A stretch of 64,000 nucleotides of DNA, taken from the NCBI GenBank assembly GCA_965153355.1, contig OZ231126.1, positions 3,410,001 through 3,474,000 of the forward strand, in the 5' to 3' direction. A model generated the notes under the pieces. It worked only from the letters and a program-made list of their open reading frames with translations, was not told the origin of the DNA and searched no databases. The position numbers and the translations under genes were made by a program. This DNA is from Flaccisagitta enflata (lineage: Eukaryota). Positions 1,976-5,822 of this stretch are shown here, piece by piece. The first letter of the stretch is position 1. Each line of letters starts with the position of its first letter.

Positions 1976-4674
1976 ATGAAGCCGACAGATCCTAACTCCC
2001 CGGTGTCAATGCTGCCGGCGGAACATTTCCCATTCGGAGAAGACTGCAAATTGACGCGATTGTTTCAATCGGTCCTTTTTCATCATGACGTTCAACCCGA
2101 AATTGTAGATATCTTACAAGAGCAGGAAATCTTCTCGCTTGAGGAGGTACGTCTCGCTGACCCGGATGGCAATCAGGAGAGCCAGAATCTCTTTCAGGAG
2201 ATTGCAAATCAAGTTACTCCTCCCGTGCGTCGTCTCAGATTGAAGAAAGCCTTTCGCCGAATGCTCTGTCCGGATCCATTGGTGGCCATCCATGAATTGC
2301 CTTCTGTCGCTGATCACACCTCCTCTAACGTGAACGCTATTACTACGGGCTCTACCGCCATTGATGACGCCTCCTCCACTGAAGACAGAAAGGGGAAACA
2401 AGAGGTGGCGAACAACATGAATGTTACGGTCAAGAATTCGACTGTACAAGAACAAGTTAATGCAGGCACAGTCATTAAAAATGTAAATGTAACAGATAGC
2501 GCCAAGGAACTGGGAGAAGATTATTTGAATAAATTAGAAACAGAATTTCGAGAATATCTGAAAGAAAACATTAAAAATTATCATGGAGAAATCTCCATTC
2601 CGGCTTCCAAACAACGAGCAAAGTTGAGTGAAGCTGTTCTTAATTTGAAAGTAAAGCTAAAAAAAGAACCCGAGGAATCGCAAATTATCCAAGAAACGAA
2701 TGTATCTAACGAATCAGAATTTGCTCAATATTCTGATTCTGATTCTGATTGTTCCGATTATTCTTATTCTTATTCTTATTCTTATTCTGATTCTGATTCT
2801 GATACTCAAACATCATTACCAATACCAGAGTCAGAGATGCAAGGTGCAAATTCTGAATCGGTGCCAGATACTGAAACCGACATGCCATATCAACTATCAG
2901 GATACACACCAGATGAGAACCTGGATGAAGAAAGTTCTGATGATTTTCAGGAGCCAGTTGAGTTCATTGAAATATGTTCCACCATTGAAAGTGGTAATAG
3001 GCTTGTGATAATAACAGCTCCCGGAGGAAGAGGAAAAACCACAATTGCCAAGAAGATAATGTGGTGTTGGGGAAACGATACCTACTTTCAACTCCAAGGC
3101 TTTTCCATGGTCATTTGGATCGATGCAAAGTACATTGACAATGATAGCAACCTCTTTGAAAATTTTGTGAAGCAATACAACTTCATCGAGGGAAAATTTT
3201 CACCATCTAAATGGAAGAATTTACCCGAAGTGATCCGACAAATTCAAGAGCGAATCGTTTGGATGGTGGATGGCCTCGATGAAAGCGCAAATCATTCACT
3301 AATGGAAACATTCATCAAAACAGAGATTGGCCGCTATGAAAAAAGTTCATTTATCTTTCTGACAAGAGAGGAGGGAAAAGAAATCCTGGGGCCAATTGCT
3401 GATCGCGCGGTTGAATTTACTCTCTGCAATCTTGATGAAAACCTATGCCAGGAATTCATCAAAGTGTACCCTTTCTCAGAGAACAAATTTGAGAAAACAG
3501 AAGAATTATCATCTCAGTTACAAATCAATGTGGCGCTCAAGTCGATGTTTTCAGTCCCAATCAACGCCGCTATGATATGTCGTCTGTTTGATGATAAGGG
3601 ATTTGACGGTTATATCAAGGACGAATTGGACATCATTGGGAAAAACCTCGCAATGAACATAAAAGCCGCTCAGTTCAAGCAAATTGAAGGACAACTGGCT
3701 AAGGATTATGTCAGCAAAGAGGAAAAGGAGCGTCTGGATAGGAAAAAACGAAAGCTACTTGAAACCCCAATTGATGAAGTGCATAAGAAAAACAAGGAGG
3801 CGCTCATCAAGCTAGGACATGCCATTTACAAATGTAATGGCAACTCAGTGATAGGGTTTACCAATTTGAAGGAATGGATGATTGAGGAAGCATTACAGGA
3901 CCTTAATGTGACTGAGGAGGATAGGTCTCTCATATTAAGATTGGATATTTTTGAGAAAATACTTGATGGCGACCAAACAATACTGCGTTTTTACCATCGA
4001 AACATCCGCGAATATCTTGTCAGTTTGTTCCTGATCAGCGACACAGACAGAGACTTAGTCCTACCAAGAGAAAAAGGAAAACTGCAAGATGCTCATCTCG
4101 CCATTTTCAAATGCGCTGCGGCGCAGTTGTTCAGTTGTTTAGACCTTGACGGCAAATTTGTGATAGATCAGCTCTGCAAACTCATTAAATATATCTTTGA
4201 AAGCTGCAAAGAGGCTGATGAATGGCGACTTTTGGAAATCATCTTTGAAGCGATTTTTTATGCGACGCAAAGACCAGAAATGAAGAATGATCTTCAGACT
4301 GTTTTGCTTTATGTTATCAAAGTTGCCAAGAAGCAATCGTTTCCAATCAATCCAAATTGGGCTGATGCCATTAACAAAGGCATCCTTGATGCTATTGTGA
4401 CTCATGCCAAAGATCTCGAAAACTATGACTGCCAAAGTTGCATATCACTGACGGTATTCAGCAGACGCATGAGATCGCTGTTTCAGCGGGAAAGGACGTC
4501 AATGTACAACTGGCCGGAAAATCAACCCGTTGTTATCATTCCATTTGTGGCAAAGACCGATGAATACATCGTCATAAATCTCCCAACGGAATCTGGAGCC
4601 AAACATGTTACCCAAGGGTTCCAATCCTTACTTTTGAAAAAAAATGGTATGCTATGTTATGCTCTTTCTCTCCT

Positions 4675-4758
<84 letters not shown>

Positions 4759-5822
4759 TCCTCCACATTCACACGGACTCTGTTTCATTGTCAAACTCTA
4801 TGTTTTTGTGTTCTTTTCCAGATACTATTACCTCCCCAATACCTCTTCAATACTGTGAGACGGATTTTCAATCCAGATTTGGATCATATGGAGTGATCGC
4901 CGAATGCATAGATGGAAACATTTTTGTCTGGGGCGGCGTCAGTCAAAAAAAGGTTTATATTTACAATGTCAAAGAGAAATCTTGGAAAACCTTCAATACA
5001 TCAGGTGAAGTTCATCCTGGGTATATATACGCCGCGAGCGTAGAGCTGAATCGTCTCATTTACCTATTCGGCGGTTGGCCGGATTCAAATCGCCTTTCGA
5101 GTCTCTCTCTCACTGGGGAATTCCGCCGAGTTCCCATCAAGGATGACTCGATGCCGTATCCGCGGAATAGGTCAGTCGGTTGGACTTATAATGGCAACCT
5201 CTATTTTGCGTTTGGGCACAGCTGGGGACCTAGAGGGAACCAGCCCAAGCGTGAATTTATCAAAGGCGGGGCCTGGACCAGTGGAGATGGCGAAGGTTTT
5301 ACGAATGAGGTTTTGAAATTTGATTTGAGAGAAAAGTCCTTTTCCTTTTTGACGACGAAGGGACCTTCGCCTGCACCTCGCGAGGATTGCGGATTCGCAA
5401 AGCTGCCGACGAAAGTTTTCATTCATGGCGGTGGTGGTGTGAAGGCGCGCGTGCGTGCGTGTTTGCGTGACTTTTTTGTGTTAGACTTGATATCCAATGA
5501 ATGGACTGAATTGAAAGACTATGGTCTCCCTTTCGCCAAACAAGGGCAATCATTGACAGCATTAGGTCCCCGGCAAATCATGCTTATGGGAGGGTATGAG
5601 ACGAATGGTGGGAATCCCTCAAATGCTGTTAAGATTTACGATTTGGCCACTTCCATCTGGAAAGAAGACCAAACGCTGTCGCTTGTATTCCCTGGCAGAA
5701 GTGGAGGACCAGTTGGGCATAAGTCAGTTGCTGTTAAAGAAAATGAGCGGGTTACCAAAGTAATTACGTTTGGAGGCACATCCCACCTCCTAGAATTTGA
5801 CGTGGAAGCCACAAGCCAGTAA
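1976..5822 (+). CDS. NLR-like STAND protein: SAM-like N-terminus, acidic linker, NACHT NTPase, helical region, 6-blade Kelch propeller (1223 aa; exons 1976-4646, 4822-5822)
   Basis: NACHT motifs: Walker A ITAPGGRGKTT, Walker B WMVDGLDES, sensor FIFLTR, VPINAAMIC, winged-helix FYHRNIREYL. Phase-1 intron AATG|gtatgc..(tttc)n..ttccag|ATACT joins the 991-aa and 392-aa ORFs in frame (..KKN-D-TITSP..). Kelch GG motifs: IFVWGG, IYLFGG, LYFAFG, VFIHGG, IMLMGG, VITFGG. First in-frame ATG is at 1976. Confidence 0.85.

Follow-up and report, generated by a model that had tools for sequence, protein, structure and literature searches.

A probable two-exon gene in Flaccisagitta enflata predicted to join an NLR-type NACHT module to a C-terminal Kelch propeller

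Gene model and splice junction

We analysed 64,000 nucleotides of Flaccisagitta enflata DNA (NCBI GenBank assembly GCA_965153355.1, contig OZ231126.1, positions 3,410,001 to 3,474,000 of the forward strand), the whole of which we call the window and number from its first letter, and describe in it a locus on the + strand at 1976-5822. We read this locus, with high though not complete confidence, as a gene of two exons (1976-4646 and 4822-5822, +) encoding a 1223-residue protein of the signal transduction ATPases with numerous domains (STAND) and NOD-like receptor (NLR) type, in which an N-terminal region, a NACHT domain and a Kelch propeller follow one another. The open reading frame listing gives a stop-free frame on the + strand at 1829-4858, in which the earliest ATG stands at 1976, and another frame at 4638-5822, and these are linked by a donor (ATG/GTATGC at 4646/4647) and an acceptor (ttttccAG/AT at 4821/4822) that has a pyrimidine tract before it. 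Exon 1 (1976-4646, +) starts at that first ATG and carries residues 1-890 and the first base of codon 891, the intron (4647-4821, +) is a phase 1 GT..AG intron of 175 nt that contains a (TCTT)24 microsatellite at 4663-4760, and exon 2 (4822-5822, +) carries residues 891-1223, a 20-residue linker and then the propeller, before the stop codon TAA at 5820-5822. Because 175 equals 3 × 58 + 1, the two frames join only once the intron has been removed, and the exons joined by script give 3672 nt, that is 1223 codons with one stop, at the end. Searching the window with the spliced protein (tblastn) recovered 1976-4645 at 100% identity. An initial annotation of this DNA had given the exon coordinates and the length of 1223 residues correctly. 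The intron position coincides with a domain junction, that between the NACHT-helical part and the Kelch part.

Comparative evidence on whether these exons belong to one gene comes from relatives that reach the junction. The protein P0014 (1332 aa) is encoded in one uninterrupted frame on a 4273-bp contig and holds both NACHT and Kelch (Pfam scores of 25.3 bits for NACHT and 176.1 bits for Kelch_KLHDC2); BLASTP aligns the spliced window protein to it in a single stretch (residues 143-1218 vs 266-1331, 24% identity, E 6e-64), and this stretch crosses the exon junction without a break. A second relative, P0009, runs 10 residues beyond the junction (SPIMLQH vs SPIPLQY in the window protein) and then ends. 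Altogether 14 relatives reach residue 840 (P0014, P0009, P0110, P0111 and 10 others), and 10 of the 14 end or lose homology 6-76 residues from there, several of these 10 stopping directly after a '..KK' corresponding to the donor in the window. This loss of homology near the junction fits an intron at a conserved place combined with an exchangeable C-terminal module.

Domain architecture of the predicted protein

The middle of the protein is a NACHT nucleotide-binding domain (NBD; 2942-3475, +; residues 323-500), delimited by Pfam, a structural model and motifs. Pfam NACHT (PF05729) matches residues 342-440 with 33.2 bits against a cut-off of 26.7 (E 5.6e-8), and NB-ARC scores only 13 bits on the same protein. 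Walker A motifs follow the pattern GxxxxGK[ST] and Walker B motifs of the NACHT type the pattern hhhhDGhDE; the window protein has APGGRGKTT at residues 348-356 (3017-3043, +) and IVWMVDGLDES, with its DGLDE, at residues 427-437 (3254-3286, +), followed by FIFLTR with the sensor-1 Arg at residues 459-464 (3350-3367, +), SVPINAAMIC at 526-535 and RFYHRNIREYL with the winged-helix His at 671-681 (3986-4018, +). Among 34 long relatives these motifs show almost no variation, or none, at their G, K, D, E, R, P and H, and R557 and H763 of P0014, the counterparts of the sensor-1 Arg and the winged-helix His, are nearly invariant in alignment A4.

Behind the NBD, the model and Foldseek place helical domain 1 (HD1), the winged-helix domain (WHD) with its RFYHRNIREYL motif and helical domain 2 (HD2) at 3476-4483 (+; residues 501-836), followed by a beta-strand linker (4484-4646, +; residues 837-890) that carries a 'NWPEN..P....PF.AK' motif common to the relatives, has strands predicted at residues 852-888 and ends at the donor. 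The model, built from an alignment of 36 sequences, has a predicted local distance difference test score (pLDDT) of about 90 over residues 323-890 (mostly 87-97). Foldseek against the PDB returned 196 matches at E<=0.001, the best being NLRC4 (4kxf; 5.1e-13 over 528 columns), then NLRP3, NOD2 and NAIP5; about 500-530 columns align to NLRC4, NLRP3 and NOD2, and identity to the solved NLRs is 12-15%. At the sequence level the NACHT part gives a weak match to NLRC4 (E 6.2e-4), and residues 627-693 give a weak match to a region of NLRP3. The NBD-HD1-WHD-HD2 module is thus modelled with the fold of animal NLRs, and by profile, motifs and predicted fold the protein is a NACHT STAND NTPase, for which nucleotide-dependent oligomerisation is predicted.

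Exon 2 encodes a six-bladed Kelch propeller of the KLHDC2 type (4881-5804, +; residues 911-1218), recognised by Pfam Kelch_KLHDC2_KLHL20_DRC7 (PF24681; 133.6 bits against a cut-off of 50) and by six 'hhhhGG' Kelch signatures, one for each blade, at residues 924, 970, 1017, 1089, 1143 and 1204. Six further Kelch or propeller families in Pfam also score above their own cut-offs on this exon, and the closest solved propellers are KLHDC2 chains (E 4.3e-18 over exon 2 residues 41-279). The protein ends 5 residues beyond the last blade. Between the window protein and P0014 the propeller has 31-35% identity. No Pfam LRR (leucine-rich repeat) family matches either exon at E<=1, and the complete KLHDC2-type propeller stands at the C-terminus, where NLRs have their LRRs and Apaf-1 its WD40 propellers. 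Predicting the NACHT-HD part and the Kelch part as a complex gave a score of 0.00 against a mark of 0.34, which is evidence neither way.

The N-terminal half is divided into four segments, with an N-terminal helical region (2048-2266, +; residues 25-97) coming first. Four to five short helices are predicted there (26-35, 41-49, 55-60 and 67-96) at low confidence, their pLDDT being 63-79 in the long model and 42.6 when the same helices are folded alone. Residues 1-145 match no Pfam family at E<=0.1 and no SAM family at E<=10; neither these residues nor residues 129-325 match CARD, PYD, DD or another known effector in Pfam at E<=10; and the protein atlas returned only unnamed clusters for the N-terminus, with recognition below the atlas mark. 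Residues 89-175 have a pLDDT below 50, and within this segment, predicted to be disordered, lies a short motif rich in N, V, Q and G, NSTVQEQVNAGTVIKNVNV (2435-2491, +; residues 154-172). Similar motifs stand near the start of P0001 (residues 1-30), P0027 (residues 10-40) and P0014 (residues 18-45), and pattern searches of all six frames of the window found no second copy. Amyloid signalling motifs of NLRs (RHIM, fungal PP and bacterial BASS) are short, rich in G, N, Q and V, placed at the N-terminus and shared with a partner effector; the motif of the window protein may resemble RHIM and fungal PP, and it matches no Pfam profile.

Next comes a conserved pre-NACHT module of a helix followed by short strands (2516-2683, +; residues 181-236; pLDDT 76-94), alignable in all eight relatives compared, and then an acidic, low-complexity linker rich in Ser, Asp and Tyr (2684-2941, +; residues 237-322; pLDDT below 50). 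Inside the coding sequence at 2730-2803 a hexamer repeated in 12 copies encodes the SDSDSDCSDYSYSYSYSYSDSDSD of this linker. Since acidic SD-rich tracts occupy the equivalent place in P0001, P0007, P0013, P0014 and P0027, the tract is conserved across the family and cannot be put down to slippage alone. P0027 and P0013 start with MGN..., a pattern that the window protein, starting MKPTD, does not have; such a start could serve as an N-myristoylation signal.

Set against the initial annotation, the complete NACHT motif set stands, with every catalytic and switch motif located and the Pfam score above its cut-off, as do the helical region behind it, here modelled at high pLDDT and matched to the NBD-HD1-WHD-HD2 of solved NLRs, and the six Kelch blades. 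The 'SAM-like' N-terminus that it also proposed is not confirmed by the Pfam searches or by the low-confidence helices. Its tripartite layout of effector, NACHT and sensor is upheld insofar as an N-terminal region, NACHT and Kelch are found in one protein, here and in P0014; the N-terminal 'effector' is without a recognisable fold.

The protein family and its relation to known systems

An exhaustive HMMER search of 1.84 billion representative proteins with residues 325-890 as the query returned 109 proteins at E<=1e-3, 31 at E<=1e-10 and 12 at E<=1e-30, mostly short fragments. The family includes P0001, P0002/P0110, P0003, P0007, P0009 and P0014 among others, at 24-43% identity and with no useful annotation (P0007 is a 'hypothetical protein'), and its members are colinear through the pre-NACHT module, the SD-rich linker, NACHT, the helical domains and the 'NWPE' linker; of the 111 proteins collected, P0014 alone aligns with the Kelch part. 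Farther out, 34 more distant hits of at least 927 aa comprise 31 with NACHT, 18 with LRR_6, 3 with HEAT_2, 3 with Ig I-set and 4 with the NOD2 winged helix, and in the protein atlas the NACHT-HD part lies nearest to NACHT clusters of cnidarian, arthropod and bacterial origin, which we treat as leads only. These counts suggest a family that is small and lineage-restricted; the initial annotation had proposed a lineage-specific class and named a widely conserved housekeeping family as the objection to it, and with 31 proteins at E<=1e-10 among the 1.84 billion that objection fails. Word-based homology searches, which are weak for divergent proteins and have little bearing on rarity, returned P0001 only, and nothing with residues 325-890 or the Kelch exon. 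Metagenome contigs yielded no related locus, whether searched with a four-sequence alignment or with P0007, and the 64-kb window holds no second copy of the gene, hence no tandem array.

Two relatives deserve separate mention for what they carry at the C-terminus. Residues 462-832 of P0110, and likewise P0111, form a second P-loop module (AAA_22 at 27.7 bits, TniB at 22.1 bits) followed by a helical tail; in P0110 this tail is similar to the beginning of P0014 in its N-terminal part (SLFP.[ST]F.FE), a hint of module shuffling or of gene arrays.

Conservation was assessed between the window protein and P0014 and between the window and contigs of a DNA sequencing run. Identity to P0014 is 31.2% over the propeller, 26.4% over the NBD, 24.5% over HD1-WHD and 24.2% over HD2. 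Contigs from a DNA sequencing run (X1), which represent another individual or another copy, list 24 differences from the window, all in exon 1 (2579-4592), and none over the Kelch exon. Fifteen of the 24 are synonymous third-position changes, far above random expectation, and the frame is therefore under coding constraint. Eighteen of the 24 lie on one 416-base contig piece (4221-4636) and may be alleles or a close paralogue. In the same run the summed depth over the NACHT region exceeds that of the flanks, as extra copies could cause, but depth is no measure of copy number here.

Animal NLRs (NLRC4, NOD2, NLRP3) share with the window protein a NACHT with Walker A, a Walker B of the form DGLDE, the sensor-1 Arg and the winged-helix His, the NBD-HD1-WHD-HD2 fold, a conserved pre-NACHT segment and the three-part layout, but they end in LRRs where the window protein has its Kelch propeller, and CARD, PYD and other death folds are undetected at its N-terminus. 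It is not an NLR in the strict sense of NACHT plus C-terminal LRRs. Apaf-1, NWD1 and TEP1 are likewise STAND NTPases in which helical domains are followed by a beta-propeller in the sensor position, and in Apaf-1 it is the propellers that take up the activating ligand and keep the resting state locked; the propellers of these proteins, however, are of WD40 type and usually of 7+6 or more blades, as opposed to a single six-bladed Kelch, and the NTPase of Apaf-1 is NB-ARC whereas that of the window protein is NACHT (33.2 vs 13 bits).

KLHDC2 itself is a receptor for C-terminal degrons whose C-terminal tail docks to a ubiquitin-ligase core. The window propeller shares its Pfam family (PF24681) and a long third-blade loop (EF..GG.W.S....), but it lacks the C-terminal tail and is fused behind a NACHT module. 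The residues of human KLHDC2 that hold the degron carboxylate in the pocket, R236, R241 and S269, align with G, R and Q of the window protein (chain numbering, residues 65-307), so that one of the three is kept. This pocket and the lack of a ligase-docking tail speak against placing the protein in the class of KLHDC2-type C-degron receptors.

STAND and NLR switches are modular, the sensor part setting what gets detected; the sensors described in surveys of animal NLRs are LRRs, and those of STAND relatives are WD40, TPR, ankyrin or HEAT repeats. Our search of full-text literature, with supplementary tables and subscription journals, where an architecture table may list one, outside its reach, found no description of a NACHT-Kelch protein; most matches pair NLRP3 with Keap1, and among the matches listed the NLR surveys of sponges, fungi, zebrafish and ctenophores have 0 occurrences of 'kelch'. 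Passages of a plant NLR atlas name kelch among the rare alternatives to LRRs behind the nucleotide-binding domain, with fewer than 500 of about 56,000 sequences carrying any alternative repeat (PMC9825502). The plant proteins of these passages are NB-ARC NLRs, unlike the window protein with its animal-NLR-type NACHT. The initial annotation's statement that it did not recognise a Kelch sensor as characterised therefore holds for the pairing with NACHT in the literature searched, and is to be qualified by the plant cases that those passages record. The kind of protein is known, a STAND/NLR protein with an alternative repeat sensor; what is new is an animal-type NACHT joined to a Kelch propeller, a rare layout.

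Proposed working, alternative explanations and surroundings

Taking these results together, the best explanation overall is that one two-exon gene encodes an NLR-type switch with the Kelch propeller as its sensor, an explanation that we consider probable but well short of settled. By analogy with solved NLRs and Apaf-1, the protein probably works as a ligand-gated, NLR-like switch: at rest it would enclose ADP in a closed form, in which the nucleotide touches the conserved winged-helix His and the structure is kept locked with help from the propeller; a ligand bound on the propeller would release this lock; and nucleotide exchange would then let the NACHT modules oligomerise. The clustered N-terminal regions, each made of the helical part and the disordered N/V/Q/G-rich motif, might in turn pass the signal to a putative partner. 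A role in immunity or cell death, again by analogy, we put forward tentatively, at somewhat less than an even chance. Because the propeller is no less conserved than NACHT, a conserved ligand is likelier than a rapidly changing pathogen surface; candidates would be proteins of the host, peptide ends and conserved products of microbes.

Several observations weigh against reading the locus as a single gene for a Kelch-sensing, NLR-type switch. Support for the splice consists of the comparison with relatives, and an RNA run (X3) gave 0 reads, the roughly 6/100 of that run sampled being no test of splicing or expression; the whole Kelch stands in frame in only one of the 14 relatives that reach residue 840, P0014, and the NACHT score of that protein is 1.4 bits below the Pfam cut-off; P0110 and P0111, which form one cluster, carry the AAA_22 P-loop domain after the same junction and have no Kelch, so that members of the family differ in their C-terminal module; no death-fold, TIR or other known effector was detected by Pfam at the N-terminus; and the propeller is more conserved than NACHT, unlike typical pathogen-sensing repeats. 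The sharpest form of doubt about the gene model would have two genes lying head to tail, a NACHT-only frame that runs into the supposed intron and ends at 4858 and a separate Kelch-only gene, which the reading frames would make look fused. Exon 2 does have an in-frame ATG at 4644, most relatives are NACHT-HD fragments that end near the junction, and no spliced read was seen, within the limits of the RNA sampling just given; but a protein started at 4644 would open with about 30 residues translated from the (TCTT)n microsatellite, the donor, pyrimidine tract, acceptor and 3n+1 intron length all fit exactly, and P0014 carries both parts colinear in one open frame across the junction, which P0009 crosses likewise. 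We regard two genes as very unlikely. Comparably improbable is a recently dead or silent copy, that is an intact-looking relic of an expanded family whose expression has been lost: the microsatellite-rich, gene-poor surroundings, the hexamer repeat within the coding sequence and the 0 RNA reads, which as sampled are no test, would suit such a relic, whereas 1223 codons without stop or frameshift, the intactness of every NTPase motif and the 15 synonymous changes among 24, as purifying selection would give, would not.

A more substantial alternative, though one that we still hold to be unlikely, accepts the same protein and gives it another task, as a regulatory or scaffolding STAND ATPase whose propeller would bind a protein of the host that is conserved (a peptide end, for instance, as in KLHDC2) and whose work would lie in proteostasis, signalling or cell biology and not in pathogen sensing. 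NWD1, TEP1 and NPHP3 are regulatory or scaffolding STAND ATPases of this sort. Such a role would agree with a propeller that is the best-conserved part between the window protein and P0014 (31.2% vs 24-26%) and free of listed differences in DNA run X1 (0 in the Kelch exon vs 24 in exon 1), with the lack of a second copy within the window and of any known death-fold or TIR effector among those looked for, and with KLHDC2, the closest solved propeller, being a substrate receptor for host proteins. It agrees less well with a family that is small and patchy, unlike a conserved housekeeping family, with the NACHT-LRR proteins that stand closest outside it, of which some carry Ig domains or a NOD2 winged helix, and with the exchange of the C-terminal module in one relative, something also seen in diversifying receptor families; the protein moreover ends 5 residues past the last blade, without the C-terminal tail by which KLHDC2 is joined to its ligase, and keeps one of three degron-pocket residues. 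A far more speculative variant of the sensor proposal, to which we give very little weight and which again argues by analogy, is that a KLHDC2-type propeller in place of LRRs, a fold specialised in reading peptide ends, might sense a defined terminus, such as a new C-terminus made by a protease of a pathogen or of the host itself, and might signal by amyloid-like templating through the N/V/Q/G-rich motif in the way of RHIM and fungal PP motifs; if true, an animal lineage would have an NLR that is 'cleavage-sensing' and whose output is prion-like.

For the favoured explanation, a single gene for an NLR-type switch that senses through Kelch, the interest of the layout lies in its sensor and in its junction. 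Joining NACHT to a KLHDC2-type propeller adds a sensor fold known for binding short peptide ends, and since the fusion is conserved across about 25% identity it points to a class of ligand outside the known range of LRR-based NLRs. At one fixed junction the module is swapped, being Kelch in two members and a second P-loop module in another, and the coincidence of that junction with an intron here makes it a small, clean case of receptors evolving through the shuffling of domains as exons. The practical value of the finding, which depends on expression and a ligand, is modest for now.

The surroundings of the gene are eukaryotic in character, microsatellite-rich and of about 32-49% G+C, and Rfam found no match in the window. 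Microsatellites and tandem repeats are dense, among them the (TCTT)24 of the intron (4663-4760), a (TCCG)42, repeats at 8243-8409, at 530-877 and elsewhere, and arrays of 20-mers in both orientations, and they create many long spurious open frames across the window. Frames at 57072-59511 and 61889-62989 (+) show C2H2-like spacing of Cys and His (e.g. CEICGGFVKDLSSLCIHFLNAH) and a tail rich in Lys and Glu, with no Pfam match at E<=0.01. On the opposite strand, an exon-like frame at 17894-18301 (-) matches Cyclin_N (48.4 bits, E 9.9e-13), and long frames rich in Ser, Ala, Gln and Asn at 21088-23254 (-) may belong to the same gene as that Cyclin_N frame.

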